This document shows positions 13,940 to 44,793 of a DNA stretch of 64,000 bases, one piece after another. A program made the position numbers and the translations under genes. The DNA lies in the NCBI GenBank assembly GCA_035084275.1, contig CM068743.1, forward strand, positions 95,666,001 to 95,730,000, written 5' to 3'. The first letter of the stretch is position 1. Each line of letters starts with the position of its first letter. The notes below the pieces were generated by a model. It saw only the letters and a list, made by a program, of their open reading frames with translations, ran no database searches and was not told the DNA's origin. The DNA is from Hydrolagus colliei (lineage: Eukaryota).

Positions 13940-14200
13940 CAGACATGGCGCCGCGACCGTCAGTCACCCCGGAATGTGGCGGCTGATGCGGCGAGCCGTG
14001 TTAAAGATTGACGTGTGGTAAGCGACATGTTTGCATGTTGACTGAGTCGAGGTACAGGCGATGGTGAGGTCGGAGGCTGAGCCGCCGCCGCTTGTTGTTG
14101 TCACCAGGACCTCGGCGTGGAGACGTCGCGTCAGCATCCGGGTGCCTGACCGAGGATATAAAAGGAGGGGATGGGCGGGCGGCTGCTCTTTTCATCCACT
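13940..14200 (+). promoter_or_regulatory. AZIN1: AZIN1 promoter: CpG-rich region, TATAAAA box and pyrimidine-rich initiator
   Basis: CpG-dense stretch in a CpG-poor window; TATAAAA at 14157-14163; CTCTTTTC at 14186-14193 about 30 nt downstream; YY1-like ACATGGCG near 13943 and TGACGT near 14009. Confidence 0.75.
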
Positions 14201-14252
14201 CGCTGCTGATCGAGGAGAGTACAGTGTCAGCACAGGCCGCCGTCGAGCTTTT

Positions 14253-14306
14253 ATGGCAAAAAGCGTTCGTCTTCTTTCTCCTTTGGGCTCCCCCGTTACT
14301 CTTTGA
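14253..14306 (+). CDS. AUG-initiated uORF, 17 aa (MAKSVRLLSPLGSPVTL*)
   Basis: ATG 14253, TGA 14304-14306, ending 2 nt before the AUU of the next uORF. Confidence 0.75.
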   Translation: MAKSVRLLSPLGSPVTL

Positions 14307-14308
14307 AA

Positions 14309-14362
14309 ATTCCGCCGAAAAAGAAAAGACGTTTTACCAAATCTTTTGGGCCGTTATTTCGC
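14309..14362 (+). CDS. AZIN1 uCC (AUU-initiated conserved uORF), part 1: IPPKKKRRFTKSFGPLFR
   Basis: ATT at 14309 with A at -3; 18 codons to a phase-0 GTAAGT donor; resembles the vertebrate AZIN1 uCC N-terminus. Confidence 0.9.
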
Positions 14363-17300
14363 GTAAGTTACACTTATTTATTTTTAATCGCCGTGGATGG
14401 TAGTGGCGAGGATTTGTTTTTGCCAGACTGAAATGCCGTTGAGTACAGATATTGCGTGTACGTGTGTAAGAAGTGTTGTCTAATGTAGGGTGGTATCTTT
14501 TTGGAGATGAATTGCACGGTTTTACATGTTATAATCGGCTTGTGTGTGATGTTAAGATGTCCGTGTTTGAGAGACACAACAGTTAAGAATCCATCCCCAC
14601 CCTCGTTCTCGGCCTTCACTCTGTTTGAAGGAGAGTCCGGAAATCCCAGCTTCCTCGACGGCGGAACCCCCGCCCCCTCGTCGCGTTGATTGGCGGAGCG
14701 GGCGGCCGACCGGCCTTCCTTTGGCTGGGACGCCCGTCAATCGTAGCACGTCACAATAAAACGGAGTTTGGGATTCCATTGAAAGCGTTGTGGGTGACGG
14801 TTAAGAATAACGGATTCGACATCTTAAAACCTTTTTGAAATAGTATAGAAAAAGGAAAGAGACGCGAGTGTCAAAAATACTCAGGTTCGCGGTAGTCTCG
14901 ACGCTGAGACGAGTTAGGTTTGACGGGAAGCGAGGTGGGGGAGAGGTTTAAGATGTCGTTTAACTGCGCATTTAAGATTATTCCTTTTAAAAAAAATATT
15001 GAACATAGAATAAAACGCGAGGATTTCCTCTTCTTAACGAGTCAGTGTAAGACCCGATACCGGGTTCCTAATGTCACCAACAGCCCCAAGCAAAGGAAAC
15101 CCCAGGGTTGCAATGATGGCCGCCGGCCGCCCATGTGGCAGTGGCGGGACAGGACAGGCGAGTACCACACCTGTTCCCGACACTTCCAGTTAAGGGAAGC
15201 AGTGCCATGACTATGGTTGAACCTCTGCTCACAGGTTGTGTTAACCTGAGACACTAGAGTCTGTTTTAGAGACTGACTCGCTTCGTTGTCATCCTCTAAA
15301 CTTAATCCTACTAACGCGCCTCCAAAAGATCCCAACTGACTGAATAACCCGCGATAAGAGCTGGAGGGGAAACCGAACCTCCCAATTTTGCTTTCCTGCT
15401 CGTTGTTTCATTTGTTTCTGCGACATAGACTTTCCAGGGCTGCTGTTTGGGGAAAGGCATAAAAGACACCCTTAATTTCCACCCCCACCCATCAGTTCAT
15501 TGAACTCCCGACATTTTAACTTTCTGTCAGAAGATGCTTAAAACATTTTGTTCAAAACATTTTATACCCGCTCTGCGCCACCAGTCACTCCCCAACACAA
15601 ACACACAAGCCACAGAAAATGTGACACCTTGAAACGCATACAATTAAAAAATGTAAACACAAAGCTACTTTGTGAAACAGAAACACAAATGAATTTCAGG
15701 TTTACTAAAGCTGGAACAATCGAATTTGAGGCGTTATTAATGTGTTTTATTATTCTCTATTCTACCCTCCTCCACCCATCCGTTTCTGATTTTATAAAGG
15801 CGCCCAATATCCCAGCCTGGCGAGCGAAAGCGGCTCTCTTGGGGCCATGTGTTGAGTTTATTTTATTTGGTATAAATTGTGGCTGAAAATATTCCGGTTG
15901 GGACTTGCACTGGTCAGAATGATGCCATTGTTACATGTGAACAATCGTGCCATCCTGCCGGCTGCGGCGAGTGGGGAGACAGCCAGCAGTGAGGGCGGGA
16001 GGGAGGCAAGCACAGCCTGCAGTCCCATGGGGGAATAGGGGGGAAAAGTGCATAGGAAGTTTCTGAACCCTGTGACTTTTCCCCTAAATGTTTAAGAAGG
16101 TGATTTTTTTTTGTTTGCAAATGCTGCAAACTTCTGCTATCTTGGCATGCCGCCACAACTACTTTTTATTCAATTGTTGATTACTGTATTTTCTATATTC
16201 CTATAATATCTTCATTAGATCTTTGTTATATCCTGTCTGAGTTTCGCCCTCAAAATATACAGTCAATTCACTATACCGTATATTCTGTGAAGCGCTAAGC
16301 CTACTCAATGACATGATAAGGTGCTATTATCAAATGCGAAGATTATTATTATCCAAATTGATGTTATCGCTCATCTGTTTCTTAAGGTATTTTGTTTCAT
16401 TCTATGTTGTCGATCATGCACAACAATTTGGAAATGCCCAATAAAACTACTCTGCTGGCTGTAATAAAGACGATTAAATGTTAAAAATAAAGAATTGAAT
16501 TAGATTGATGGTGGCTACACTGAAATGTGGATTTAAACATAATCCAGCCATTTGATATGTTGCCTTCTCACGTCATCGAAGTCTTTGTGCAGTTCATAGG
16601 ATTTTACTGTAAAGTGTTGTAACTATTTATAGGTATACAGCGGCCAATTTGTACACAGCAATATCCCACAAATGGCCTTGGAGTGAATGACAAGTTTTAT
16701 TTGTGGGATTATCACCAGGAAAAAACTTCTTGCCTAAACAGGCAGATGGTTTAATATCTCATCCAAAGGATAGCACTTCCAACTATGCAGATGAATTGAG
16801 TGTCACCTTCGGTGTCATCTTAGAGAGTTAAAAGTTCCAATGTGGGCTTGAACCCATAATGTTCTGACTCGGAGGCAAGAGTGCTACAATTGAATCACAG
16901 TATTTGCAATTGCAAAATGCAAACTCTAATCCTAAATAATATGGTACTCATCACTGCATGCTCAAAATAGACTTGATAACTTGTTAAAATCTGCCAAAAC
17001 ACTAAATTACCTATGGATTGGTCGTGAGAGGCTTTCTGTTCCAAAGATTTTGTTAAAAATTTAAGTGGTGCACATATAGATTACAAGATCCTCAAACGTG
17101 TGTACAAATCACTTCATGGTGTGGCTACCACTCACAACTTGCTTACACCTCACTCCACTGGAGAGAGCAAAGCAAAGGAATTAAGGCAAACATTTCCGTA
17201 CTTTTGAGGTGTAGTGGTTGAAAGCACACACGCACCTTTTGGTATGAAGGAGACCAAAGCCAGTTGAGCTCAGGTGGGTGGGTTGTGGAGTGGGGTGTAA

Positions 17301-20300
17301 ACAAGTTAGAGAGCTAGGGCAGTGCTAGATGTGTTAGTGAAGTATGACCAGGGGAGGCCCTCTTTATATGGGTTCTGTGGGATTCCAAGGTTGCTGCTGC
17401 AGTTAGCAAGAAGCCTGGATGGGATTGCAACAATGTAAATTCAGGGGCAAGCGCGTTTTGGGTTTTACTAATGCAGTATTGTTCTGAAATGTTGGATTGC
17501 TGTGGTTTGGTTATAATAAAGAGTGGCACCTCAGAAGAGATGTAGCATTTTATGTGTAACAACTTAATTTAAGACTTTTAGTGTCATAAAAATAAATGCT
17601 AGTTAATATAAATTAGTTCATATAACCAGAATACCGTTTTTGTCCTCGACTCGAGATGCCCCAACTCTGATCACGGAAGCATTGGGTAGCAAATGGCCAG
17701 TTTCATGACATTTGTTGCCCAATATGGGGCTCGATTAATTAACAATCATACATATTTAAAAAATATTAGCAGTAAAAGCAACAAGTCAAATGTAAAAGTC
17801 CTTTGAAGAATATAATTTTTTTCCTGAAGAGGACTACATTAAAGAGGAAAATGACCAAGATGGTTAAAAGTGTTCTGAGAAAGATTGTGTCCAGGAACGA
17901 GTTAGACAGGTTTGGCAAATTCCAGGAAAGATACAAAGAATGGAATGAAGATTGTTGTTGGGATTAAAATGGGGATTATGATGATGAGTATTATCCGTAT
18001 AGCAAAAAGGACAAAAGAACTAATAATGGTCTGGAATACGTTGATTGTATAGTAAAGGAAAGGGAGAGGCCGAATGGGAGACAGAATCAGTTTTACAAAG
18101 TGAGCACGAACAATATATACAGGGTCACAGGAGAAAGGACAGAATTCCAATGGACAGGAGAAGAGATAAGTCTCATTCAGATAACAAGGAAATGGACACA
18201 GTATGAAAAGTTTGTGCTAGATTATGCTGAAGCTTGTACACAAAATGAAGCAGAGGACACATAAGGCTATGCCCACCTTGAGAGTATGATTGATTTAATG
18301 AGTATATGTCTGTAACTTTGCAGTGTAAAATGCTCTTGACAGGAAGCCTTGTGATGTGCCTTTAAAAACTCTTATGTGTCATTTTGTAATGGTGTAGCAG
18401 TGTTTAATGAGACAATGAAAGTTGGAGCTCCAGGTAGTCAATGGAAAGTAGGAGAAAAAAAGGAGCAAAGGAAAATCAAGAAAGAGGAGTTAGAGCAACA
18501 GGTCAAAGCAACCAAGGACATAAGAGCTGTGGAAAAGGGTAAGAAAACCTAGAGGGACAGACTCATTAGAGACTAGGCACCAGTGCATTCCCTACAAGAG
18601 GCAATGAAGATAAATAATCTGGAATCTGAGGAGAGGAGATTAAAATGGGCAGACCAGGAGAGGGAAACATGGGATGTTAAAACAGAGGAGAAAAAAGGAG
18701 ACTATGTAACCCCCCCCCCCCCCATTTTAACCTAAAACATAAAAGGCAGGGTCCAATTCTTCACTCAGACATTTGGATATCATCTCACTGATGCTCCATG
18801 TAAGGCAGGGTTCAGCCTCATTAATGACTATGGTCCTAGTAGAAGAGATGAGGAAACCGTTTTGAAATATCAGTCAGGAAGCCAAAGGTTGGGAAAACCT
18901 TGGCAGAACCACTGGTGAGAGTAGCCAGATTGTTGTTAACCTGAAACCTGCTGTTATAGAGGAGTTAAATCTTTGATGGGATCAGTGGGAAATGGAAGCC
19001 TGGAAGATTTATTTGCCTTATATCCCTATGGTCGATCAATCGTGAATAACCCAAATAGAAACCACTCAGATGTATTTATGTAGTGTGGTAAACAGAACAG
19101 ATCACAGTCTGATAGACCCCACTTGGGAGCAACCAGTACAGGTACTCAAAGAAAAGTTTGAAAAAGATAAAGGCAGTGAAACATGAAGATGCTGAAATAC
19201 TGGCTAATGCAGTAAAGGGAAATTTCCCAACCACTAAATGGGTAGAAATATTTTTGGACTCTCCCCACTGAGTCAAAAACGTGTGTGCTGTCAGGATACC
19301 AGACCACTGGAGACTCCAGTGACCTGTAGAATTAACAAAAAGGGCAGTCAGACATTTTGACTTAAGAAATCAGACCTGAGTGCTGGAAAACCTTGGGAGA
19401 AACTCACCGATGGGAATTGAGAGCAAACAGGCAGTAAAAAACAAGAACCTCTGGGAATATTTCCCTATTGTAGAAACCAGGGACCAAAAGGAGGAGAATT
19501 GTATGATTCCATGCACTCCACACCCTCACCCTCACAAATGCCCCCAATAAAATATTTCCCGCAAGGAGAAGAGACAATACAAGTCCAGAGATAGGAACTC
19601 AGTGAAATAGTTCACTATCTTCGCCCCAAACCCTTTAAATCTGGTAACTATAAGAAGCCCCAAGGTAAGAAAGTGAACCAGCCTGGTCATCGTATAAGTA
19701 AATGGCTGGTAGCTCTGACCGACCCCATATCAATAACTTGATCAGTGATTAGACAGTGAGGGCTTTGTTAGATACAGGGCCTGGGGCAACCTTAGATTAA
19801 ATAAACTGGTACAGAGTGAGTATACTACTAAAGAATTAACCAAACTACAGGGAATTAATTAAAGCACATATCCCTAATGTAATGTATATTGTAGAGATAG
19901 GACGAGAAGGGGAACAACGACTCAGTGAGCACGTGAGATCCTTGTCCTCACTTTCAAGGCCATTCACGGCCTTGCCCCTGTCTATCTCCGATCTGCTGTC
20001 TTCCTATTCGCCTGCCCGTCCCCTCCATTCAGCAAGCTCTGGCCTGCTCCGTGTCCACCGCCCAAACCACCTGACCATCGGTGGCCAGGCTCTCCGCCTC
20101 TCTGCTCCCACACTGTGGAACTCCATCCCACAGTCCTTCCGCCTTGCTTCCTCCCTTTCCGCCTTCCAAGTCGATCTCAAGATCTTCCTCTGACTGCACC
20201 TTCGGTTCCCCTCCTAACTCTTCCCCTTCCCCTACTCTCCTTCCCCGACCCCCCCCCGCTCAGGTCCCGAACTAACTGTTCAGCACCTTGGGATGTCCTC

Positions 20301-20467
20301 CTGACAAGTCATTTTGTTGTTGTTGACTCACTAAACTGCCCCCTAATTGGAATAAGGTGTTATACTTTGATGGTTCTTGTCACAAAGTGAACAGGGTCAA
20401 ATCAGCAGGAGCAGGGATTGTTTCTTCTTTTGAAACATGCAAGTTATAGTACATTTCACAACATAAG

Positions 20468-20760
20468 AAAGCTTTCAAACATTCACAGTGTAGCAGCATT
20501 TTTGTCGTTGGGGGTCTTTAGGTCACATATCTGGATAAATTGTGGTTTCAAAGCCTACAGATGTTTGATTTGTGATGGGACATTCACTATGAATTGTAGC
20601 CTAAAGTGTCATGTCAACCCATAGTGAAGCACATCTTTTCATGTGTCTGAATTGCCAAAAGGCTTTCAAGACTTCTATGAACAGTTAAAAGCATATGAAA
20701 ATGCATGGGTACAAACTTGCTACAGCAGGTCTTGCTTTGTGATGATGTCTTGGTAGGTCA
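20468..20760 (+). pseudogene. ZNF236-like C2H2 zinc-finger pseudogene fragment, part 1
   Basis: With two frameshifts and a stop: KAFKHSQC/AAFLSLGVFRSHIWINCGFKAYRCLICDGTFTMNCSLKCHVN/HSEAHLFMCLNCQKAFKTSMNS*KHMKMHGYKLA; matches recalled ZNF236 finger triplet. Confidence 0.75.
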
Positions 20761-21068
20761 CAACAACTTGCACGTATATAGCACCAGCCACGCAGGATGG
20801 CGCCTCAGTGCTTAACAGTGGCAGAACCTGACTCTGGGCCGGGGTACGGTGAGGGGGTGGGGAAGCAGGTGACCATAAGCACGGTCAAAAAGGAAGGTTT
20901 TGATAATAATAATCCTTGCATTTGATATAACACTTTTCGCATCTTCTAGATGTCTCAAAGCACTTCACAGAATATACTGTAAAATGAATTCACTGTATAT
21001 TTGTGGGCGAAATGCAGTAATTGGTTACATACAGCAGTGTTCCACAAACCGTCGTGGAATTGAAGTGA

Positions 21069-21590
21069 TCATAGAATTTTATGGCACAAAAGGAGGCCAT
21101 TCAGCTCATCTAGTCTGTGCCGTCTCTTAGAAAAGAACAACTCAATCCCACTGCCCCGCTCTCTCCCCACAACCTAACAGACCTGTTCTCGCTAAATAAA
21201 GATCTAATTCTCTTTTAAAAGCTATCGAATCGGCCTCCACCACCTTTTCAGGCAATGCATTCCAGATTCAAACAACCAGATGAGTGAAAACATTTCTCCT
21301 CAGCTCCCCTCTGCTTCGTTTTGAAACTATTTTAAATCTGCGACCACGAGTCACAGATTCGCCCACCAGTGGAAACAGTTTTTCCTTATTCACCCTGTCG
21401 AATCCCCTCATGATTTTATAAACCTCTATTAGGTCTCCTCTCAACCTTTTCTGTTCCAAAGAGAATAAACCTAGCCTATCTAGCCTTTCCCCATATCTGA
21501 AGTCCCTCAATCCTGGTACCATTCTAGTAAACCTTCTTTGCACCCTTTCCAATGCCTTAACATCCTTTCTATGGTGTGGTGACCAGGATT
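21069..21590 (-). mobile_element. CR1-type LINE 3' fragment
   Basis: ORF 21268-21621: KALERVQRRFTRMVPGL...LEQKRLRGDLIEVYKIM. Confidence 0.9.
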
Positions 21591-22255
21591 GTGTGTGTTG
21601 TGTGCCTGCGTGTGATTGCATCTGTATTTGTCTGAGTGTGTTTTTTGTTCTGTGTGTTTTCCTGTGTGAGTGATTGTCTCTGTCTCTGTGTGTCTGTGTC
21701 TTTATGCTCGCATTAGTTTTCTGTTAGATTTCCTGTGTATGTTTTTCTGTGCCGGCAGCCTGGGAGAGAGAGAGGGAGAGAGGCAGGCAGGCACGCAGGC
21801 AGGGAGGGAGGGAGGGAGGGAGGGAGAGCGGCAGGCAGGCAGCCCGGCAGCCCGGGAGAGAGGCAGGCCGGCAGCCCGGGAGAGAGGCAGGCCGGCAGCC
21901 CGGGAGAGAGGCAGGCCGGCAGCCCGGGAGAGAGAGAGGGAGAGAGGCAGGCCGGCACGCAGGCAGGGAGGGAGGGAGAGAGAGCGGCAGGGAGTGAGAC
22001 AGGCAGAAGGTAAGCACAGCACTGAAGTCCGCTGCTGCTGCCCGGGCGGCCGAGGCCGAAGGCCCGTCACCCGCTCCTCCCAACCCCCGCCGGACACTGA
22101 CCAAACCCCGGCTGACAGCGCGCCGGCCGCCCCTCCTATTTACTGTATCTCCGAGGCTCAAAATCTCTTGTATCTGCGTATAGGGCGCACCCCCTACTTT
22201 CGAGATCTTCCGACCTGAAAAAAAAGTGCGCCTTATACGCGGAGATATACGGTAG
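21590..22255. mobile_element. Truncated Tc2/pogo-like element with a 24-bp GC-rich tandem repeat
   Basis: One TIR-like end GTGCGCCTTATACGCGGAGATATACGG+TA; unit gcaggccggcagcccgggagagag about 4 times at ~21830-21960. Confidence 0.55.
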
Positions 22256-22559
22256 TTACTATTGTTTTGTTTCTTGAGGGATTATAATCAAGTGTGAGAA
22301 AAGTTGCCCAAGGTTTCACTCTACTGGGAATCAGGTCTCTCACCTGAGACGAGACGAGTACTCTAATCACTGAACTAAACAGAACTCCATGTGAGTTTTG
22401 AAGAAGGGGAAAGGGGGGCAAGGTGGAGGGATTGAGAAAGAGTGTTCTACAGTTTTGGGAGGTAGAGGCTGATAGCCTGACCTCCAATGGTGAAGCGGAG
22501 TTTGCGAGGGGCAAGTAGGGAAATCCTGTGTCCCGTCCCGTCTCTCCCCCCCACCCCCC

Positions 22560-23410
22560 CACCCCCCACCCACTTGGGTCCCGACCTGACTGTTCAGCGC
22601 TTTGGGACGTCCTCCCGATGTGAAAGGCACTTTATAATTGCAATTTTGTTGTTGTTGTAGGAGGCTAGCGTAGTTGGGGGCAGATTGGAAAAGAGGAGGT
22701 TGGAGAGATACAGGTGCCAGGGAGTGAATGGATTTGAACACAAGTGTGAGGATCCTGAAGTCTCTAGGTTTGGTAATGACCAGAACTGGTAAGATGGGGA
22801 TAGAGAGTTTGGTCCAGATAAGTATACGGGTGGCAATGTTCTGAAAGAGCTGGATTTTTTGAATAGTGGGGCCGGGGAGACTGGCATTTGAGTAATCCAG
22901 GGCGAAAGTGACAAACAATTGCACAAGCATTTTAGCTGCATTTGGGATAAGATACTGTCGGTGGTGGGCAATGTGGCAGAGATAAAGGAATGCAGTTCTG
23001 GTTAGGGACCGGGTGTGGGGTAGGATGGAAAGCTGGGATGGAACCGAATGCTTAGATTGCACACTGATTCTGTGAGTCTGAGAGAGAGCTGAGGGAGGTT
23101 GGAGAGTGCAGATCTGCAGGAGTGAAGACATTAATGGGAGCCAAGGAGTATGGCTTCTGTCTTATCCGCATTCAACTGCAGAAAATTTGCACTTGTCCTG
23201 GACCTGGAGTCAATGCTAGAGGAGGCAAAGTAGATTTGTGTGTCATCCGCATACATGTTGAAGTTTACCCAGTGTCTGGATGACATTATCAAGAGGGAGC
23301 ATATAGAAAATGAAAAGAAGTGGGCCAAGGATGGAAGGAGTCTTGCAGTAACCTGCAAGTGACCAGGCTGGGGGCAGAAAGCATTTGCTGAAATTAAGTG
23401 GAGGTGGATG
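22560..23410 (-). mobile_element. L2-type LINE fragment
   Basis: YADDTQIY, FLQLNADKTEAIL, LDYSN. Confidence 0.85.
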
Positions 23411-23427
23411 GTTTATACTATGGATCT

Positions 23428-23620
23428 GCATCTGCTAACAACCAAGCACAAACCCAAATTTAGGCAGGTGAGCTGGAGCAGCCAACGACATTCAATGCTG
23501 ACCAGCAATCCATGCATGGACTGAGGCAGGAACTAGCAGTAGCTTCCTTGCAGGGTGGTCTCGACCAGCAGCTTATGGACCAGCAGCTTGTACAAGATGA
23601 AGACACAAAGTGCTGCTGAC
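23428..23620 (+). pseudogene. ZNF236-like pseudogene fragment, part 2
   Basis: QTQI*AGELEQ...GGLDQQLMDQQLVQDED resembles the recalled ZNF236 linker (QVEIESDELPQ...AGLGQQLADQPLEADED) that follows those fingers. Confidence 0.6.
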
Positions 23621-25769
23621 ACAAGGACAGAGTGCCAGGAGTGTCATCTCAGAAGAATTCGAGTGACCTTTTGGAAGTCAGGATGAAAAATATTTTAACA
23701 ACAATTGGACTTTGACATCTTGGATATGGTTGTTGCAATTCACAGTTGTGGTGCCGAAGGTTGCAGATGATGACTATGATAATGGCACTGCTACATGGAA
23801 ATATCTGGCTGATTTGGTATTCTTTTGAATGTTCTTTTTATTGTTGTGTGTGTTGGGTTGTTTGATGTATATTATCCAGATTGTTGCCCGGTAATGCATC
23901 TTCATTCAGTTTTAGCTGCTTTGTTTCTGCCTTGTATGCTGTATGTGAGAGGAAAATATGTCCAGTGCCTTGGGATGTCCGTCTGAAGTGAAAGGCGCTA
24001 TACAAATGTAATGTTGTTTTGTTGTGACACTAAGGGGGGGAAATGTGGAGGTGGTGAATTCATGACCAGGAGGTCGTCTGCCCTTTTAAAGGGGTTCTGA
24101 GGGATGTCAAGTTGCAGAAGCTGCTTGTAGCAATTAGCCAGTTAGCAAGCAGCCTAGATTTGATTGCAACAACGTAGGGATTGGGGCAAGCATGTTAGGG
24201 TTTTAATGCAGTATTCTTCTGAGAGTTGTTATCATAGATATGTTGTTGGATTGCTATGTTTGCTCGAATTGTTGTATGTCTTGAACTTTTATGATCTTAA
24301 GTGCAAGGTGGTCTAGGGTATTGCTAGGTTATAATAGAGTTTCACCTTGGGAGGGGTAAGTGCCAGCATTTCATGTGTTGCAACTCACACTTAATGTAAG
24401 GCTTTGGGATATCGTAAAAATATATACAGTACATATTTGTGCATTTAAATTAGTTAATATAACCAGGAAACCTGTTTCGTCCATCTGACTCGAGAAACCC
24501 CTACTCTGATCTTTGAAGCATTGGTTATCAAATACCAAGCTCTGTGACACAGAGTATGAAATGATTTAGACACTGGTTTAGACAATCTATACTTTCTGTA
24601 ATAGTGTGCCAGTGCAGCCGAACAACTACAACAAAATTACATTCTACAGCACCCTTCGCATCGGGAGGCCATCCTAAGGTGCTGGACAATCTTTTTGGGG
24701 CCAGAGATGTTGATAATAATAATCCTTGCATTTGATATAGCGCTTTTCACATCTTATCGACATCTCAAAGTGCTTCACAAAATATACTGTAAAGTGAATT
24801 GACTGTATATTTGTGGGTGAAATGCGGCAGCCAATTGCACACAGCAGTGTCCCACAAACAGTCGTGGATTGAAATGATCAATTTTATTATTGTGGTTTTT
24901 TTTGGATAGATTATTATTAGGCGTGTGTGGAGTAAGGAAACTTCCCCAATGTTTTGCCCTGATCTGCCTGGATTCAAACACAGTTCTCACGCTCTGTCAA
25001 AGAAATACAATAGAGAGGTGTATGTGATTCATTGAATATTGACAGTGTTATGATATTCAATGAAGACGGTTGTGTGGCAAACAAACTAGTTTTTGACAGG
25101 TCTCTTCAAATATAATATGCGTTTTCAACTCATTGTAAATTCGTACAGTGCTATTCAATGGTGACAATTTCACGAACAGTTAGAATTTGTTCTTTATCAG
25201 CTTCTAACCTCATAATCCTATGTGCAAAATTAGAGCTTCACTGTGTCCCACTAATAGGCTTGAATAATTGTCCTGGTAAATGCAAATTGCAATTATGGAA
25301 GGACAGATAGATATGTCCCACTTTTTGTGGGTGGGAAATGGGTACTTGTCAAGAGAAAGGATGTTAGTATAGTACTACTATCAATGAACAAACATAATTT
25401 CCACTTCTGTTGCCCGGTGTTAGCAGGAAGCACTTCCAGACCAGGAATACCACAGGATACATAAATTTTAAACCTCTTACAAGATCATGTTCTAATTATT
25501 TAAATCTCAGAACATTTCTCTCCTCCTCTTGCCCTGCCTGCCCTTCCCCATAAGAAGCACTTTCCATATTGGACTTAATGTAGTCTTTCTTTCTAATTTA
25601 ATTTGTTACAGTACTGTACTTTATTCATAAACCGAAATTTCATTCTTGATCAGATATTCATCCATCTTAAATTTTAAAGGAGCATTGGCATCAAGAAGGA
25701 ACATGTCATTTTGCCATTGATAGTTGCCCTGAATATAATCCTTGATCTCACCTTGAGCTGAAAAAACCA

Positions 25770-27350
25770 ACAACAACAAAATTACATTTATAGAGCGCCT
25801 TTCACATCGGGAGGACGTCCCAAGGCACTGAACAGTTAGGTCGGGACCCAAGGGGAGGGGAGGAGAGTGAGAGAGGGGGGAAGAGTTAGGAGGGGAGCAG
25901 AAGGCATGGTCGAAGAGGAAGGTCTTGAGACTGGCCTGAAAGAGGAAAGGGAGGAAGCGAGACGAAGGGATTGCGGGATGGAGCAGGCCAGAGCCCGCTG
26001 AATGGAGGGAACGGGCAGGCTATAGGGAGACAGCAGGTCAGAGAGATAGACAGGACAAGGTTGTGAATGGCTTTGAAAGTGAGGATGAGGATCTTGAATT
26101 CAATCCTCTGGGGGATGGGGAATCAGTGGAGACTGGCGAGCGTGGAAGTGATGTGGTCGAGGAGCCTAGTGCGGGAAAGTACACAAGCTGCAGAGTTCTG
26201 AATAATCTGCAGCTTGTGAAGGGGAGAGCTGGGAAGGCTGACGAGGAGGGAGTTCCCGTAGTCGAGCCTAGATGTGCTGAATGCGTGGATGAGTGTTTCG
26301 GCAGCGTGGGGGTTGAGGTAGTGACAGAGTATGGCAAAGTTGCAGAGGTGGTGGAACGCAGTACCAATCATGGCTCGGATTTGGGGGAGGAAGGACAGTT
26401 CAGGGTCGAACAAGATGCCCAGATGCCTGACTGACTTTGAGAAGTGGAGAGTGCAGCCTTGAATGCTGATGTTGCCAGCACCTGAGATGCGGAGGCACTG
26501 ACGCAAGTCAATCAGGGGGGCCTCCATCTTGTTGACGTTTAGTTGGAGGAAGGTGTCCCTCGTCTAGGACTCGATGTCAGATAGACACGCAGTCAGAATG
26601 CCAGTAGTCCTGGAGTCGAAGGTGGAAGCGGAAAGGTAATTTACCCCATGTCTGCGGATAATGTCACCGAGAGGATGGTAACATCCGAGACACTGAGGCC
26701 CCAGGTAATCACTAAGTCAAGCGGGTGGCCATGAACATGGGTGGCAATGTGGAGGGAGAGGTTGAGAGACGAGAGGAGGGAGGAGAATTCTGAGGAGGTG
26801 GAGCAAGAGAGGGTGAAGTGGAGGTTGAAGTCGCCAGGGATGATGAGGAGATCGGAGGAGGCGCAGTCTGAGAAGTCAGAGATGAAGGTTGGGGGGGATT
26901 TTGGGGGACGATAGTGTCCAGCGATATATCGGTTATATCGATATAACTTTTCATATCGATATGCCGATATTGGAATTTAAAATATATTGATATATTGAAA
27001 AATTTGGTATTAAAAATTATATTGGTATATCGTTTCTGGCGATATATCGGTATAATGCAAACTTTTCCAACTTACCTTGTCGCCGGCATTGCAAACCTCC
27101 TTGGCCGAGAGCACGGAAGGCGCACGCATATCGGAATGCGCGCATACATCCGAATACGCGCGCACCTTTTAATGCGCGCGTGCATGTGCAGTATTGAAAA
27201 ACCCGGAAATCTCGATATATCAGTATATATCGATATGAGCCAACCAATATATCGATATCTGAAAATTTCCATATCGACGGACCCTAGGGGACGGTAAACC
27301 AGGAGGATTTTGAGGGAGAGATGGGAGAAGTGGCAGAGGGTGAGGTGTTC
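25770..27350 (-). mobile_element. L2-type LINE (internally deleted), interrupted by a hAT MITE
   Basis: SRLDYGNSLL..LQIIQNSAA; endonuclease-like GDFNLH near 26820; (TTG)n tail at 25770. Confidence 0.85.
26912..27286. mobile_element. hAT-type MITE
   Basis: TIR TAGTGTCC / GGACCCTA, 8-bp TSD GGGGACGA/GGGGACGG, ATATCG subterminal repeats. Confidence 0.85.
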
Positions 27351-27849
27351 AAAAGAGTGTGCTGTACCTGTGACCGGAAATGATGTCACGGGGAGGAATA
27401 CCATGGGAAAATTCAAACCCTAAGATGGCAGCTCCTCCTCTACTGAGCTGGATAATGGCCGCAGGTTGACGCCGACCCGTCCTACGGGTACCGGCCGGTC
27501 CGGGCCTTTAGCTCCAATGGCCCCAAACCTCAACCTCGGCTCTGGCTACTGCCGGACCTAATCCCCAGGATCCCAGCCTCTCCTCTGACCGCTGCCAGCC
27601 CCAGTCCCCAGGACCTCGCCTCTCCTCTGACTACCGCTGGCTCCAATCCCCGGGAGACCAGCCCAATGACTCTCTGCCGCTATTTCTGGCCATCGTCCTT
27701 GAGTCCGCTCCCTGCCTCGGGGTTTAGATACTCACCTGGAAGGTTGCTGACCAAACCTTCACGCCGCTCACAACTGCACTAACTTGGCCTCTACCAAAAG
27801 AGTAGACCACATGGGGAACAAATATAGAAAACTGAATACAATAAAAGGT

Positions 27850-28800
27850 GTCATCCTGGCTCAAGTGTTAGCATTCACCTCCTGAGTCCTTGGAATCGTA
27901 ACGTCTAAGGCGACACTCCAATATAGTGCTGGGTGTGCTGCATTGTCAGAAGTGCCATTTCTCAGATGAAGCAAACCAAGTTCCTATATGCCTGTTAGGT
28001 GGATTTTAAAGTGTCCTGGCCAACAATCCCCCTAATAAAATAGGACGTTGCTGCATGCCAATTGGCTCTCAAATTTCCCCATAAAAGGCACAGTATCACG
28101 TCTCGTTACAATATCCTTTTGAGATGTCTCAATTATGTGATGAGGTGCTGTCAAACACAAGGATGGTAATGATTCTTATTATCAATAATTAACAGAAATA
28201 ATGGGAAGGAATCAAATTTTCTGGGAAAAATCTAAACATAATTACAACTCCCAACCTGATTGTCCTGTCATTTGTGGAAATGAGTAGAATAAGCATGGTC
28301 ACAACTTGCATACTGTAGCAATATTTGCAGTTTGCATTTTCGCCTCGGTGTGAAGGTTATTGGTTTTAAGCTCTATCCAGCTACAGTATAGTTTATTGGT
28401 ATCTCCTTCCTCGCGTGAAAGGCGCTCTACAACTGTAATTTTGTTGCTGTGTAAGTGTGTTTCTAGTGTAGGCTAACACCAAGGCAATGCTGTGAGAGTG
28501 CTGCAATGTAGGAAGATGCCTTTCTTCAAATGAGTTGTTGAACTGAGATTGCATCTGCCTGTTCAGGTAGACGTTAAAGATTGGATGGCATTATTTGAAA
28601 AGAGAAGGGAGTTTCTGCTGGTGTCCTAAGCAAACATCTTCCAAATAAATCTTGTCATTCACTTTATGGCTGTTTGTGAGACATTTCTGTGCTCATATTG
28701 GTTTCCACATGCACCTACAAATACAGCCACTATACTTAATTGTAACTCTGGGTGAATGCCTTGACAGGATAAGGTACAATATCAAATGCAAGGATTATAT
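27850..28800 (+). mobile_element. Two older, diverged DeuSINE-like copies
   Basis: gtgctgcattgtcagaagtgcc...cagatga and gtgtcctggccaaca Deu-like motifs; a related minus-strand copy at ~16545-16900. Confidence 0.6.
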
Positions 28801-29606
28801 GGAGGGCCCAAAATGCGGATTTGAAAGTATGTGCTACTCAGATTCACTTAGAAAGTCCTGCAACAAAATTAATCCACGAAGGAAGTAAGATGAAAGATGC
28901 ATGGGAGGGGAAATCAAACAAGAAAAGGTTTTTCACATGCATCCATCTCACCGTGCCATCATGTTGCTTCATTGTTGTCCATTAAACCTATAAGCCTGGA
29001 AACTATCCTTTACCATAATGTGAATCTAGAACTTTATCAATACTAACTTTAAAACATATCTAACCTGTGTTCTTTACAAATAGAGGGTCTAAATGGTCAT
29101 TTCTGCTGGCATTCCTTAAAAAGGAATCTGATTTGCAAATGATGATTCCTTTCAGTAACTGAGTACATCATGTCTATTTGTAGGAATAACGCTCAGATGC
29201 AATCTGCTTTTGGTGTGGAGTTTTGTCAGGTTGGTGTGACATACTTCCAGTTATGGCAAGGACATTCCAAGTCCTTTTAGGAAACTCCTTTAAAAATCTG
29301 TATTTGAAACACTATATTGTTCTATGATGTGCGGTCGGTATCATTGATAAATTTGATACCACAGTTGTTGCTTTTTCAGATGAAAAGGAGAACAAAAAAT
29401 CCATTTATTGTACATACTTTCTGCCGATTCACTTTAATCAAGACAATGAAAGCTGCATTGCAGCTTCTGCGTAAACAACTTTTCCAGCAAAACCAAGGAG
29501 CTTTTTCACTCTGCATCTGCATAATGCTGTTTCAAATTGACTGGAGATGATTACATTTTCTTTCCTCTAAATCATGGTCTAATTGCATTATATTTTCTCT
29601 TTTTAG

Positions 29607-29714
29607 GGCAGAATTTCTGTTTGGGTGTATAACAGCTATCCAGAAGGTCTGGGTGTAACGCTTTACAGAGAGCAGTTCGACTTCAACGCTGAGCCACCTT
29701 GGGACCCTAGCTGA
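29607..29714 (+). CDS. AZIN1 uCC part 2: GRISVWVYNSYPEGLGVTLYREQFDFNAEPPWDPS*
   Basis: Pyrimidine tract plus AG acceptor at 29605-29606; in frame with part 1; YREQFDFNAEPPW motif, stop TGA 29712-29714 followed by TAG. Confidence 0.92.
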   Translation, partial: GRISVWVYNSYPEGLGVTLYREQFDFNAEPPWDPS

Positions 29715-29747
29715 TAGTGGTGGTTCTCCATCTCCCAACTTGTCCAT
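29607..29747 (+). other. AZIN1: AZIN1 exon 2 (141 nt, 5' leader)
   Basis: ttttctctttttag acceptor; CAT|GTAAGA donor at 29747/29748. Confidence 0.9.
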
Positions 29748-31025: not shown

Positions 31026-31267
31026 ACAGCAGACAGAAATATTAATGGGTTTAATTATTTTCTGGAAGATTATTAAGACACCTGTATGCCAGTCTCTTTA
31101 GGACGATATAATGCATGTTGTTACATTTTACAAGAATCCACTGCAATTCAGTATTTAAAACTCTTTTTCTGCAGTTTGTTGCATATTTTAAAACCCCGAT
31201 ATTGAAGGATCTGTGGCAACCTTCATTTGGTGCTTGGTTTGAGTGTTGGCCTTGTGGAGCACTGGAG

Positions 31268-31375
31268 ATGAAGGGATTCGTTGGACTAGAAGAAAGCTAC
31301 CCCTTTGACCTTCTGGATGAAGGAACCAATCTTAGCAATGTTATTGACAACCATATTCATGAGCATACACTTTTG
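31268..31375 (+). CDS. AZIN1: AZIN1 coding exon 1 (exon 3 starts 31175): [36 protein letters not shown]
   Basis: Matches AZIN1 N-terminus MKGF...[12 protein letters not shown]; acceptor tttctgcag at 31174; donor GTAAGT. Confidence 0.95.
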
Positions 31376-32819
31376 GTAAGTGTTTTATTGGTTAATAATT
31401 CTTCTGGATATACACTAGTATAGTATGTACCATATTCCCACTGTGAGACACCTGATTGGTAAACAAATTTCATTGGCAGTTGAATTCTGTTTGCCCCTCA
31501 AAATTATTATCAATATGTATTTTATTATGTTCAGTGAATCAGTTACAGTTATAGTTAGTCAGTTATGGTCAATCAGTCATTCAGTTAGTTATAGTTAGTG
31601 AGTCTCAGTAGGCCAGGGCGATACCGTGGCAAATTTTCCTTACTCCACACTCCTGTTAATAATCCCTCAAAATAAACAATGATAATTTGGTCATTTCAAT
31701 CCACGACTGTTTGTGGGACACCGCTGTGCGCAATTGGCTGCCGCGTTTCGCCCACAAATATCCAGTCAATTCACTTTACAATATATTCTGTGAAGCGCTT
31801 TGAGACGTTGATAAGATATGAAAAGCGCTTTAACAAATGCAAGGAGTATTAGTATTTAATTACACAATACTTGCTATGTGATGCCTAAGAGGCCTTAAAA
31901 ATGATATTGAACAACAAAAAGATAATTCGTACAGGAAATTTGCAGAAACCCATCTTTAAAATTAAGGCTGTATTTAAGAAATTACCAAATTCTGAAAACT
32001 CTAAAATACTCCATAATTGAATACATGTAGACCCACGTCTTCTATTATTAGAGGGGTTTTTTACAAAAATTAAAATCTTGCTGACAATGTAATATGTTAC
32101 CAGGTTTAAATTAAACTGACATTTGCTTTTGTTTTAAATGGTGGCATCTTTTAACCCATAAGTATTCAATAAACAATAATTGTTTTAAAAAAACTGATCT
32201 CATGCTCTCAAACTTGCTCTCAAATGTTACTGCTTGAGAGATAATTTAATGCTAATCTAAACGAAGTGTGGGAAGGGGGCATGAATATAAGATGGCCAAT
32301 AGCAGTTACAAAAAGGAGTTTGGGAGAGACTTTTTAGCCAGAAGTTGGTGAGAATGTGGAACTCTGCTGGAAATTGGTTGAAGGAAAAAGCAGTTATAAG
32401 GAAACAGAATACATATATGGAAGAGAGGATTAGTAGGGGTGGAAGCTTATGTGGAGTATAAACACCAGCACAAACTGCAGGCCAAATGGCTTGTTTCTGT
32501 GCTATATCATTCTATATAATACCAAGAGTCCAGACTAATAATATGCTGTGGGTCATTTGTGGCCCACGTCACCCTCACCTGTCCCTCAGGAGACCTGCTA
32601 TTTTAGTGTTCCTGAGACTCCATTCACAGCTTACCAGGAGAGGTGGAGGTGAAAGATGGGACAGAAATCTAAGAAAAAAGTTAGTATTACACCATTCAGT
32701 ATCTGAGCAGGAGTTCCATATTTATTTCCAGGTATGCAGATCTTAAACCTACTTTATGCATACTTGGAACTGGATCTTTTAATTACCTTTCAATATTATA
32801 GAGGCTGGAGCCAGCCAAA

Positions 32820-34500
32820 GGGAGGTGGCAGGTCATGGAGTGGGGAGAAACAAATTCAGAGAGGTAGTGAGGTGCAAGAAAATGAAAAAAATTATAGAGG
32901 AGTGTGAGGATCTTCACGTTGATCCATTCTGTGATCTGGAGCCTGGAGAGGACTGATGTCTAACAAAGTTCAAAATGGACGAGTGTACAGATGGTGGAGT
33001 TTTGAGTTAGATAGTTAGAACTAGGGAGATCAGTGAGGAAGACATTGGAATAATCAAGGCAGGAGGTGAGAAAATCATGATCGAAGGTTTCTGCTGAATT
33101 GGGTGTGAGGTAAGGTCGGGGGTCGACAATGTGATGGCAATAGAGGAAAGTAGTCGATGAGGTATTGGATGTGGGGTAGGAAACACGACTGGGGATCGAA
33201 CTTGGCACCTCGGTTATGCACAGGTTTGGTAAGTCTTAAGGATAGGCCAAGGAGATTGAAGAGGTTAGAGCTGCAGGAGGGAAGACATTAATGGGAGTCT
33301 TCCATCTTGTCAACATTCCACTGCAGGAAGTATGTTCTCATCCAGGCCTTGATGTCTGACAAGCAAGCTGACAGGACATCAGTGGATCTGGAGTCACAAC
33401 TGGTTGAGGAGAAGTAGATTTGAGTGTCATCCGCATGCATGTGGAAGTTGACCCAGTGTCTGCGAATGCCATAGCCAAGAGGGAGCATGTAAATAAGGAA
33501 AAGAAGGGGGCCAAGGATGGAGCCTTGCGGTACGCTGGAGGTGACCGGGTGCAGTGCGGCAGGAAGGAAAAACATTTGCGGAGATGAAGTGATGTCGGTT
33601 GGTTAAGTAGGACTTGAACCAGGCGAGTGAGGCCCCACTGAGATGGATGAGGGAGGAGAGGTGGAGGAGGAGGATGGAGTGATCGACTGTCAAACGGAGC
33701 GGAGAGGTCCAGGAGCAGAAGGAGGCTAAGGGAGCCCTGGTCAAAGGTGCAAACCGCACTAGTGGAGCTCGAATAGGAAAGGGAGTGGAGGGAGAAGTGT
33801 GAGCAACACTTGATTTGCAACAGTGTGTTTCAGCAAGGAACGGCAAATGCAAAATGGGCTAGTACTTGGTGAAGTTGGAGGGATCGACTCTGGGTTTTTT
33901 GAGCTGGGAAAGTGATAACAGCGGTTTTGAGGGGGCATGTGAACAGAAAGCAGCTTTGGCCTGTGAGTAGGGGAGGCAGTAGATACAAAGATGCCTGGCC
34001 ATATATGCAGTGAATAATAGGCCGGTTTTGTGCCATCTAAGCGCATGCATCCGGGTTTGAGAATTAAGATTTAAGCTATTATATCAAGGGTAGTGAGTGG
34101 GTTTGGGTGATTGTTATACCAGGGAAAGTGGGTGGGTTAGGAGACCATCCTAGATCCCGGAAGGTGGGGCAAGAGAAGTGAAGAGTGACAATCATTTTAG
34201 ACTGTCTTCATAGCTGCAGTTGGAGGCCCGTAGGGAGTGGGTTGGGGAATTTATGTGGAGGGTAAGGTTTAGGGAGAAGGGGAGGACAGTGAAATCAGAA
34301 TAGATGGGGGTAAGCGGTAATAAGGTGAATGTTGAAATTGCCCGTTATGAACAGGGGTTCAGCACAGAAGCAAAGGGAAGAGAGGAGATGTTGAGGAAGG
34401 AATAGGTGGTTGGTGTGGGTGATTGGTAGACTAAGGAATTTGAAGAAGAAGGGTGAGGTACTGATCAGATGGGAAGTTGTCAGAGGATTGAGCAAGAGAG
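32820..34500 (-). mobile_element. L2-type LINE fragment
   Basis: LLLLDLSAPFD, VPQGSILGPLLFLIYMLPLG, HADDTQIY, ITGNFNIH. Confidence 0.9.
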
Positions 34501-35743
34501 GTAATGGGAAATAAAGCTATGTTTGGGAAATCTGCATTGCAGCAATTTCCTCTATGGAGCTGGAAACTTCCTGTTGAACCCATTTAGCAATACGATTACC
34601 AGACAATGGTAATTGAAGCTAGGCTAGGGTGTAATGAAATAAATAAGTGTTATAATAATCGTTGCATTTGGCATTAACGCCTTTCATATCAGGACATTTC
34701 AAAGCGCTTTGTAGGCTACAGTGAAACTCACTTAAGTCGTATAGTTGGGACTATAACATTTAATAAGAATTTAAGTTGCAGGCAAACTGTATCCTCCTGA
34801 CATGAACGGCGCTACAAAAGTGATTGTTTAGTATAAAATCCGATTCAATACATAATCAAGACTATGCATAAGAGATTCAATGCAGCCAGTAAATGCATGC
34901 AGCAACAGGTGAACATTATTTCCTGCGATTCAATGCATCTTCACACGTCACTGTATTGCAGTTTACTGGAAAACTTTGGAATTGCATTGGGTTGTGGGAA
35001 ATTAAGTTCTGGGCATGTGGAGATGGAACAATTTTTCTGTTATTGTGGAGTCCTGCAGGTTAAAGCACTTGCCTTACAAGTGGGACACCTGGGTTCAATT
35101 CCAGGCATAGCAAAACCTTGGGCAAGTTTCCTTACTCCACATGCCTAATAGTAATCCCTCCCAAAAAAACAATAATAAATTAGTCATTTCAATCCACAAC
35201 TGTTTGTGGGACACTGCTGTGCGCAATTGGCTGCTGTGTTTTGCCCACATATATACAGTCAGTTCACTTTACAGTATATCGTGTGAAGCGATTTGAGACG
35301 TCTAGAAGATATGAAAAACTTATCAAATGCAAGGATTATTATTATTCAATGCAGATGATAAGTATGGGAGTAATGGAGAGTAGGAGAGCTGTGTTACATG
35401 TTAGAAGGTGCGAATATGACTAGTGCAAATAAATCTAATTCGTTTTGGAAGGAAACTGAATGGGACTTGGGTGAATGTACGACTTAAGTGACTATAAGAT
35501 GAATAAATATAAGACTTCTGCAAGTTTTATTGTAAATTCCAGTAGTGTGCTGTGATTTGCACACAAATAGCCATGGAGTACGTGACAACTTGGGGGAATT
35601 GTTGGTCAGGGCACTGGGATAGATAAACTCTTTTTAAAAAAAAAACCTTGTCTGTTGGTTTGTTTGCTTTATATTTCAAACAAATATAACTTTTCCTCTT
35701 CTCTGCCTTTTCTCTTTGCTCCCCACCCCTCCCCCCACAGCAG

Positions 35744-35917
35744 TCTGAAAGAAATGCCTTCTTTGTTGCTGATCTTGGCAGTGTTGTGAAGCAGAACATT
35801 CGGTGGCAGAATGTGATGACACAAGTTAAACCATTCTATACTGTTAAGTGCAACACTAGTCGAGCTGTAATTGAAGTCCTTGCAGCACTTGGAACTGGCT
35901 TTGCTTGTGGAAACAAG
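35744..35917 (+). CDS. AZIN1: AZIN1 coding exon 2 (NAGNAG acceptor, alternative start 35741)
   Basis: [12 protein letters not shown]...KPFYTVKCN...[13 protein letters not shown]; YTVKCN and GFAC are AZIN1-type (ODC has YAVKCN, GFDC); donor GTGAGA. Confidence 0.95.
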
Positions 35918-36235
35918 GTGAGAATTGCTTTAGTTAATGGAACTTTGATATAATCTAGTGAATGGGATAACAAAGCATGATAGCTGGTGTGAAGCACATA
36001 TGTGCATATGAGTACATAAATTCCTCTTTTTGGCATGCACAGAAAAAGGAGGAAGTGACTGGCACCAACCTGATAACTCAGTTGCTATTTCAGCATGAAC
36101 GTTAGTTGCCACATGGGGCCGTGTGGGCCAACTGTGTACATGTGCAGTGAATGTGGTCCACACTACACCTATGATTTGCTTATAAAGTAAGGTACTATAC
36201 GAATATAATTTTGTTGTATTTTGTCATTGTGGTTA

Positions 36236-36750
36236 ACAACAACAAAATTACATTTGTGTAGCGTCTTTCACGTCAGGAGGGTGTCCCGAGGCGCTGGACA
36301 GTTATTGTTTCGGACCCATGGTGGTGGTGGTGGGGGGAGCAGTTGCCGATGGATCCATCGAAGAGGAAAGTCTTGAGGCGAGGCGGAGGGACTTCGGGAT
36401 GGAGTTCCAGAGGTTGGGGGCAGAGTGGCTGAAGGCTCGCCTGCCAATAGTTGGGCGGGTGGGTCAGGGGACGTGGAGCAGGCCAGAGTCTGCTTAACGG
36501 AGGGGGCGAGTAGGTTGGTAAGGGGATAGGAGGTCACGGATGTAGGGTGGGAGTCAGGAAATGTTGCGGAGGTGGGGGAAGGCAGAGCGAGTCATTGCTT
36601 GGATGTGAGGGGGGAAAGACAGTTGAGGGTCGAACAAGATACCTCGGTTACTGACTGGCTTGGTGAAGTTGAATATGCAATCATGGAGGTTGATGCAGTC
36701 ATCGCCTGATGCAAGAAGGCGCTGATGCGAGCCAATCAGTAGGGCCTTGG
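36236..36750 (-). mobile_element. L2-type LINE 3' fragment
   Basis: Shares the cctgacgtgaaaggcgctatacaaat...(ttg)n 3' end with many copies (e.g. ~860-1050, 6065-6440, 19930-20325, 41760-42270, 48265-48575, 52350-52670, 57400-57720). Confidence 0.8.
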
Positions 36751-37212
36751 GAATCAGTCATCAGACCTCATTTTCTCATACATATTATTGATCTCCAGGA
36801 TGCTATCCTGTGCGGTTAATGGTTAAGGGCGCTGTGAGACGTTGTTGATCTGGATGCAGGAAATATTATCCCAAGTTTATGTGTAATGGTAAATTAGGAG
36901 CACTTGTTAATAGTGACAAAGAGGGCAGGAAGGTACAAGCAGAATTGGACAGATTAGTGGGGTGGAAAATGTAGAAATATCTGAAGTGATGAGTTTTCGG
37001 AGAAAAAATAAAGAACAGAATTGTACGCTTAGTAGTGGAACTCTTAATGAAGTGAAATAATAATAATCGTTAATATTATTTAGAACATTGGGATTCTGGT
37101 GGTGGAAATGCATAGCTTGGTATAAGTTGTCCTAACCCTAAGGATGCTAGTAGCATGTGCAGAGTTTGAAATAAGATGCTTTCTGACCTATTTGTCTCTT
37201 ACGTTTCCATAG

Positions 37213-37385
37213 AATGAAATCGCTGTTGTGCAAAGCTTGGGTGTAGCTTCTGAAAATATTATCTACGCAAACCCATGCAAGCAAGTTTCCCAAATAAAGT
37301 ATGCTGCAAAAAAAGGAGTAAACATCATGAGTTGCGACAATGACGTTGAACTTCTGAAGATTGCACGCAATCATCCAAGCGCCAA
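37213..37385 (+). CDS. AZIN1: AZIN1 coding exon 3
   Basis: [34 protein letters not shown]...KIARNHPSA; AG/GT boundaries, phase consistent. Confidence 0.96.
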
Positions 37386-40300
37386 GTAAGTGTGTAATAC
37401 AACAAGCAGGGTAGATTGCTTCATCGTTAAACATGCGGCTGCAGTCTACTGTCACATTGTTAATGTAAAAGCTGAAATCTTAGATTGTTACCAAAATTGG
37501 CTAGCATTCGTTTTTAAAATTGATTAGTTAAGTTAACATTAAAGTTAACTTTAATGTTAACATTAAAGTTAACATTTAACATTGATTTCCCCTGAAAGTT
37601 GCATGCATGGACTACCTATCATCCTCAACAAGCAATATCACTTAAGGCTTTTCAGGGGAAAAACAGCTGTTGTTAAGAACCTTTGCATTAGGGTACATTT
37701 GTACCAAATTTGTGAATGTTTTAGCTCTCAGTAGGGCAACACTGAAATTATTTGATTACATTGTACAGTTGTTTGGATAGTTTTTTGGATAAAATCTTTT
37801 ATTCCTTTTTGTCAAATATGAATGTCATTTAAAAGGCAGCTTCACCCAAGTAATTTTATAGAAAGGAACCAAGTGAAGGATGCAGCTGCCATGTTCAGGC
37901 AGTTATATTAAGTCCAGAAACAGAAGTGGAGTCTTGGAGTCAAGTGTTAGTTCCAACTCTAAACCTTAAGAACTCCCCTTTCTCTCATTCCTCCCACCTT
38001 TTTATACCTCCAATGTCCCATGTGTCTTTTTTTACTAGTTTGTTCCACTTTAATTATTTGAAAACGAAAAACTCGTTAACTCGCAGAATTTAACACAAGA
38101 ACCACAAAAAAAAGCACTTAACCAACCTATTACCCCTTAAGAAAGGCCAAATGGATTGATATCTTAACAAATGTAACAGACCATCTAGTTCCAAAGACCT
38201 GGGACACTCTCACCACATGAACCCCTTACTACCTCACATTAGTTCATTGTTGCAGAGAGATGGCAAAAGTTTTTAGCTGCTCTTGAGTCTCTTAGCACAG
38301 TGATTACAAAGCTCACTCACTCAGTCCAGTTTCTAATGCTAATTATGAGTGTTTGTTCTCTACAATTGTGATTTGGCATTTTATTTTGGCTGCTTCTCTG
38401 ATTGGATAGGCAGCATTGGTAACAGTTGGTCAACTGTAATGTTACGATAAACATAGGAATTGTTATTAAGGTTTTGATTTGGGCTGGAAGCTTACAATTC
38501 TGTAGCCCTAGTCTTCCCTGTGGGGGTTGCACTTTTTTCTTTTTTCTCCATCTGTTGAAGTGCAGGCCTTATGGAAAATTTGGGACAAGGTAGAATTTTA
38601 ACTGTCGCCTTAGTACCTACACACATTTGTTAGCACAATCTGTGTTTTTCCTCCAATGGCTTTGACCAGCTTCACAAGCCTCAGCTACAATACTTACCTC
38701 TGAGCCAGTTTTCTGTTCATCCCTATGTCAGAATTTTGCATTTGCAGTTTAGGCTGATACTTGCATTACAATGCTGGAGGAGCTTTGTTTTGCAAGAGGT
38801 GTTTTTCATACAAACTGTTCTTCGCATGAGTCTAAGGCAAGGTCCCAATGTTAGAGTCTTGGTCACAATTCAGAAAGTGAAAACAGTTTCTCCCAGTATC
38901 CTTGCCAATAATCCTCCAGATAACAATTGGTTATTCAGTTCATAGCTGTTTGTGGAATATTGCTCTGCATAAATTGGCAGAGGCATTTGCTCACATATCC
39001 AGAATTGCTAGACTTTACAGAAATGGCTATTTATGGAATTTATAGAAATTCCCTGTGAAACATTTTACATTAAGTGTTTTTTAATCATGCAACAAATTAT
39101 GCATTTTAATTGTTAGACCTCTTTGTGAGTTTTGAACATTAGAATGCTGAAAATGCACATCAGCTGTCTGGGCAGACAGCATTTTTCAAAACATTACACT
39201 TTTTATGCTCTTCATAAATTCTTATAAATAAACAAAAACAACTGTTTAACAGTTTGAACTGAGTAGCAGTGTGGCTGATTATCTCTTTTAATTTCGCTGA
39301 AGCTTCACAATAGTGAATTGTACTAATTGTGTTGGTAGCAGCAAAAAGCTCCAATCTGTAGGCTGTGTAGTCTATTTTGTGAGTAGAATTGCAGGCCAAA
39401 CAGGCTGATCTTTGTTTTCAGTGTTGTAATGAAAATGGGATATTTAGATCAAAATAATCCCAAGTGTTTATGAATCTATTTTTATTTATTTAGAATTGTT
39501 TGAACTTTATATTAAAAAGAATGGGAGTTGCTACCCAGGACATCCTTGTACATAGCATATTATTGTACCACCCAAATCTTAATCAGATTTAATCAGGGAC
39601 CAGCATCCCTGGGGATATTTTATAAAAGGATTGGTGACTACCCATGGTATGCAGAGTGGTTCTTCATTTAAAGGGGAGGGCTTTTTTAGGATAAAGTGAT
39701 TTCCTTTTTTTTTCCTAAACCTAGAACTCATTCCTTTTCACTTTCACTGTTTTTGTTTTTTAAAGTTTTAATTTACCTTTTTGTTGTAACTTCTTCCTTG
39801 AGATACAGTGCAGTTTAAAATGACCATTGTATGTTTGTGGTCAAATCTGGAAAATGTGTCTAGATGCGTTTTGCAATAATGTGGGTCAAAATACAATTCT
39901 CTGGAACTTGGTTTGGTTTTATTTCAACTGGCGTTTCATTTTGTTTTATTTACATTGAGCACTCTGTGACAAATTGAATCTAAAACCTCTACCCAAATTG
40001 CAATTAATCACTTTGCTGCTTATAAAATAGACAAGTAATTTTACCCTCTGTACTTAATTTAAACATATCTAAGTGTAGTATTGAATTGCAACTGAGCATA
40101 TTTTCTCTGTTACCTTGAAAACCTGGTGTATGATGTAATAATGTAAAGTAATTTATAGTCCTGCATAAAACATAATCTTGAATGGGAAGTGATTTGTCAG
40201 TTTGTGCTTAGAAGATGCTTTATTAATAATAAATGCAAAAAACACAGAATTATACTTTACTGTGATATATTTTCTAGAAATATACGAAGCAATGGTTTTA

Positions 40301-40734
40301 TTATATCAAAAAAATTAAGTAACATAATTGAAAGCTAAAATGTGTTTTTGTAGCTTGAAATGTCTTAGATTTTTGTGTTAATTGTTGAATAGAAATTATT
40401 TAAATATGCCACAAACTCATTTTAAATATTAGTTCTTTTGTTACAGCACCCAGCCAATTCTTTAATGAAACAACTGAGTCTTGGCTTGCTGCATTGTTCC
40501 CCCCCCCCCCCCCCCCCACTTCCCCCCCCACCCTCCCCACCCCCATGTCCTTTACAATGTATGTAGCTACACATCTAGGCCCTAATCACCAGTTTTCTCT
40601 CCTGTGCAGGATTTGTTTTTTGTTTAGGTTCACATTCAGAGCTTGGAAGCAGGAGATCCTGGCAACGTATTCTTCAGGCTACACATATGATGATGTAAAC
40701 CAACTGTGCCCCAATCATCTTCCCCTTCTCTTAG

Positions 40735-40869
40735 GCTCTTGTTAGACATTGCAACTACTGATTCAAGCACAGAAAATGAGATGAGCATGAAGTTTGGAGC
40801 TACTCTGAAGAACTGCAGACATCTCTTGGAATCTGCTAAAAAGCTAGGGATTCAAGTGGTTGGTGTCAG
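40735..40869 (+). CDS. AZIN1: AZIN1 coding exon 4
   Basis: LLLDIATTD...MSMKFGATLKNCRHLLESAKKLGIQVVGV; AG/GT boundaries. Confidence 0.96.
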
Positions 40870-44774: not shown

Positions 44775-44793
44775 GTAGGAGAGAGCCCTTATA

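Follow-up and report, generated by a model that had tools for sequence, protein, structure and literature searches.

Whether the polyamine-responsive upstream frame (uCC) known from mammalian AZIN1 mRNA also stands, in working order, before the AZIN1 gene of a chimaera is the question raised by this locus, a 64,000-nt stretch of Hydrolagus colliei DNA (hereafter the window). The mammalian uCC was reportedly described by Ivanov et al. in 2008 and 2018. In the published excerpts on which we draw throughout, it starts at an AUU and represses the main ORF more strongly with spermidine, and AZI1 is given as present in all vertebrates with an absolutely conserved AUU (PMC2811004). High polyamine levels hamper eIF5A; ribosomes then stall at a Pro-Pro-Trp (PPW) motif, and the resulting queue raises initiation at the AUU (PMC11058473, PMC8705083, PMC9082881); the same mechanism appears in the excerpts of PMC7530721, PMC4383229 and PMC8162569. 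Our literature search found no report on a shark AZIN1 uORF or a fish ODC uCC, and the alignments of the primary papers may already list cartilaginous fish.

A preliminary description of this stretch had placed the frame in the leader of AZIN1, and the host gene is indeed AZIN1. Its main ORF (31268..50926, + strand) comprises ten coding exons, all GT-AG-bounded, and encodes 460 aa with no internal stop, 451 of which are identical to Callorhinchus milii antizyme inhibitor 1 (P0002). PDB searches with two of the exons ranked antizyme inhibitor 1 first. Downstream, roughly 10 kb beyond the stop codon of AZIN1, lie exons of KLF10 (60456-62000, + strand; exon 60480-61469 is 76% identical to the C. 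milii protein), a gene that presumably adjoins AZIN1 in other vertebrates. The interval between the two genes holds a long C-rich low-complexity tract at 55481-56253 (GC 0.66, skew -0.50). In a profile search with PF02784, the two loci found among the 10 candidates scored were the AZIN1 gene described here and a locus on contig C3, where the exon tested matched ornithine decarboxylase at an E value of 3e-30 versus 4e-16 for antizyme inhibitor. Judged by its sequence, this ODC1 gene is a locus separate from AZIN1 in the same genome.

At residue 365 of AZIN1 (49876-50087) we observed a Phe, where C. milii AZIN1, the five shark/ray-like proteins checked and the PDB chains of AZIN1 and ODC shown all carry Cys; the Cys is likewise missing in 3 of the 5 bony-fish proteins that showed the motif. 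We take this to be the position of the catalytic Cys of ODC. Phe365 may represent an allelic variant or a mistake in the assembly.

In the leader, the first piece of the frame reads exactly as had been claimed. An ATT at 14309-14311, flanked by A at -3 and by C rather than G at +4, opens 18 codons (54 nt; 14309..14362, + strand) that include Gly-Pro at positions 14-15 and run up to a phase-0 donor, GTAAGT, at 14363. Following a GT-AG intron of 15,244 nt (14363..29606), exon 2 continues in frame for 35 codons and a stop (29607..29714), and translation of the spliced frame reproduces the 53 residues, PPW included, that the preliminary description had proposed. The PPW codons are numbers 48-50 of the uCC (29694..29702) and begin, in the spliced mRNA, 141 nt downstream of the AUU; they are the predicted site of an eIF5A-dependent stall, a role taken from the excerpts of PMC11058473 and PMC8705083. 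The frame closes with Pro-Ser and two consecutive stops, the first ending at 29714 and the second at 29715-29717, and animal uCCs of ODC homologues also end in Pro-Ser before the stop (PMC2811004). No in-frame AUG is listed in the uCC, whose AUU stands in a Kozak-like context. From its splice signals and the matching layout of the ODC1 paralogue, exon 2 is predicted to be 141 nt long (29607..29747), with a donor at 29748. Exon 3 (31175..31375, + strand) contributes 93 nt of leader before the main AUG at 31268, which is in the same frame as the uCC and 126 nt downstream of its stop.

We also considered the 41-codon open frame that connects the double stop with the main AUG (29715-29747 plus 31175-31270) and discarded it, as chance would give an open frame of this kind with a probability of about 0.15. 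Two codons before the main AUG it contains a CTG in good context.

The features shared with the mammalian AZIN1 uCC are the orthologous gene, the AUU with a purine at -3, the accompanying AUG uORF, Gly-Pro at 14-15, PPW near the end and the final Pro-Ser-stop. An open frame of about 50 codons characterizes the vertebrate AZIN1 uCC, and the one found here has 53. The PPW falls one codon later than in mouse, where it occupies codons 47-49 (PMC7397865); an AUU-to-PPW distance of about 30 codons is given in the excerpt of PMC9082881, which disagrees with these mouse positions. The AZIN1 frame adds a further lineage to the vertebrate AZIN1 uCC already published.

A shift of the acceptor by 1 or 2 nt breaks this frame. 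A pyrimidine tract and an AG stand directly before 29607. Between 14363 and 31267 there are 1253 AG dinucleotides, only 4 of which give an in-frame PPW, all four by leading into uCC exon 2. A pyrimidine tract of at least 15 in 20 accompanies 24 of the 1253, and among the four PPW-reaching AGs it is found only at 29607. The pattern PPW-x-x-S-stop occurs a single time across the six frames of the window.

The preliminary description had named the junction 14362>29607 as a check at the RNA level. We mapped 4 of the 14 listed runs (X1, X6, X7 and X12) on positions 13900-29663 with a tool whose filter drops some records, and the junction was seen in one contig of one of these four runs, X6, which comes from a relative (organism A) and whose RNA status is guessed, no holder among the listed runs being recorded as RNA. 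This contig (depth 598) covers 14233-14360, and with it the exon-1 part of the uCC, skips intron 1 and, two letters after 14360, resumes at 29607; apart from a single substitution this is the predicted junction, and the short side of the joint spans 30 letters. Compared with the uCC of H. colliei, it changes codon 18 from Arg to His and codon 3 synonymously, and leaves the AUU unchanged. Read depth in X6 was 146.5 and 36.7 in the bins of exons 1 and 2 versus 0.3-6 in those intron bins that are free of repeat pile-ups. Both exons are also covered in X12 (raw RNA, organism C), where most first mates map to the minus strand, the pattern expected of sense transcripts in most stranded libraries. 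Among the joints listed, with 1131 further joints beyond those, 14362>29607 was absent for X1, X7 and X12, and X1 and X7 had zero depth on either exon under the record-dropping filter.

Two observations concern the intron itself. Several high-copy repeats with very deep read pile-ups occupy intron 1 (16000-28600), the strongest at 24420-24945. Near the start of the intron, at 14426-14951, X12 has a low depth of 1.39 (against 0), all of its first mates there lying on the plus strand; library strandedness is not on record, and the signal may reflect transcription in the antisense direction out of the CpG-rich beginning of intron 1.

A TATA box at 14157..14163 (+ strand), with a counterpart at a like place in the ODC1 paralogue, lies upstream of the leader, and transcription of AZIN1 probably starts near 14185-14190. 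If the start is set at 14190, the predicted leader is 407 nt long and contains one AUG upstream of the main AUG; a further ATG at 14171 precedes the putative start. This single AUG opens a 17-codon uORF (14253..14306, + strand) that had been overlooked in the preliminary description. Vertebrate AZIN1 leaders carry two to three conventional AUG uORFs, at conserved places, according to the excerpt of PMC2811004, versus the one counted here on the predicted start and exon 2-3 junction. The context of the uORF is weak (T at -3, G at +4). Just 2 nt separate its stop from the AUU, and the A at -3 of the AUU is the final letter of that stop. Both differences found in this uORF in relatives change the amino acid, a number too small to weigh much.

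The ODC1 leader (L010:7720-9630; G000:C3, about 25,078,700-25,080,600) has the same layout as that of AZIN1, with a TATA box, a short exon 1, a phase-0 intron and an exon 2 with 35 uCC codons plus stop, and the first 13 nt of exon 3 are identical in the two genes. Its uCC (L010:7857-7868 and 9237-9344) shares with that of AZIN1 a PPW three codons before the last Ser, followed by the stop. It differs in being only 39 codons long, in an intron of 1.4 kb, in an Arg before the last Ser where AZIN1 has Pro, and in starting at a weak AUG, which has T at both -3 and +4 and directly follows a TAA. A 9-codon AUG uORF, out of frame, overlaps the start of the ODC1 uCC. AUG-started uCCs are described for the ODC orthologues of vertebrates outside mammals and birds (PMC2811004). 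Both loci, AZIN1 and ODC1, fit the description in the excerpt of that paper.

Aligned without gaps, the exon-2 uCC peptides of AZIN1 and ODC1 are identical at 14 of 35 residues, a value that 0 of 100,000 shuffles reached, and when the last seven residues are left out 9 of 28 are still identical (4 of 100,000 shuffles). Different codons encode 8 of the 14 identical residues. Matches at codon positions 1, 2 and 3 number 20, 22 and 15 of 36, so that the third position is the most changed, and the other two frames of the exon-2 part match at 9 and 11 of 35 with stops inside. Because conservation thus follows the peptide, in the codon changes, in the third positions and in the stop-broken alternative frames, it favours selection at the peptide level on the exon-2 part of the uCC. 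This conservation evidence comes from the ODC1 paralogue, and the comparison of orthologous uCCs covers exon 1 of two relatives. A conserved element in intron 1 of the two paralogues was sought and rejected, its best local score of 29 being matched by 78 of 200 shuffles. An identical 11-mer stands beside CCAAT-type boxes in both introns 1, at 14730-14740 and at L010:8594-8604.

We consider it very probable that the chimaera AZIN1 uCC works as a polyamine-sensing translation brake as it does in mammals. What this analysis shows is the AZIN1 gene, the uCC frame with its motifs, the splice junction as found in a relative, and conservation with the ODC1 paralogue at the protein level; AUU initiation, the PPW stall, the part of eIF5A and queuing are taken from the mammalian papers, and we infer that these steps also run in this species. 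The earlier statement that the full mechanism is intact is in the same way drawn from the conserved determinants. At low polyamine levels neither the weak AUG uORF nor the AUU would capture most scanning subunits, which would go on to the main AUG beyond the uCC stop. At high levels eIF5A would be impaired and ribosomes would stall at PPW, and the queue forming behind it would raise initiation at the AUU and repress the AZIN1 main ORF.

Other readings of the locus can be weighed against this one. If the uCC is translated and repressive, control might nevertheless be exerted mainly through the abutting AUG uORF or through pausing at Gly-Pro 14-15, PPW then playing a lesser part; the 2-nt spacing of the uORF stop and the AUU would suit such a scheme, as would the disome profile of mouse liver, which peaks at Gly-Pro 14-15 and not at PPW (PMC7397865), the dipeptide being kept here. 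However, the PPW codons are identical in the AZIN1 and ODC1 paralogues, the few differences in the uORF of relatives speak slightly against a constrained uORF, and in mammals repression by polyamines is lost when the last 10 codons are frameshifted (PMC2811004). We regard such a scheme as improbable.

It is considerably less probable that the frame has lost its polyamine sensing and survives as a relic or for RNA-level reasons such as splicing or structure. The paralogues do have exon ends in common at the DNA level too, as the start of exon 3 illustrates, but conservation in exon 2 tracks the peptide, and folding offers this reading little: a hairpin was sought behind the AUU and no unusual structure was found there (z -0.74 versus shuffles), and the fold of exon 1 is less stable than that of shuffles (z +2.43). 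There is a negligible probability that the junction exists only on paper and that PPW closes the frame by chance, for the 15-kb gap between the two pieces, the sole point in favour of such a view, is outweighed by the junction contig, the unique motif and acceptor, and a paralogue of matching layout, which together refute it.

A more far-reaching proposal, which we put forward tentatively and think rather unlikely to hold as a whole, is that this genome keeps both daughters of an ancestral switch, in which short uORFs would gate initiation at the uCC and a weak AUG and an AUU would be interchangeable queue-sensitive starts. In both AZIN1 and ODC1 an AUG uORF lies out of frame at the start of the uCC, and if such short uORFs do gate uCC initiation, the two-tier polyamine switch would predate the split of ODC1 and AZIN1. 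The division between an AUU start in AZI1 and an AUG start in ODC is itself already in the excerpt of PMC2811004. The importance of the present finding is modest, in that it extends a published and mechanistically solved uORF to a holocephalan. It would allow annotators to mark a coding element that gene callers based on start codons likely miss, and the AZIN1/ODC1 pair offers, within one genome, a convenient natural comparison between an AUU and a weak-AUG start.
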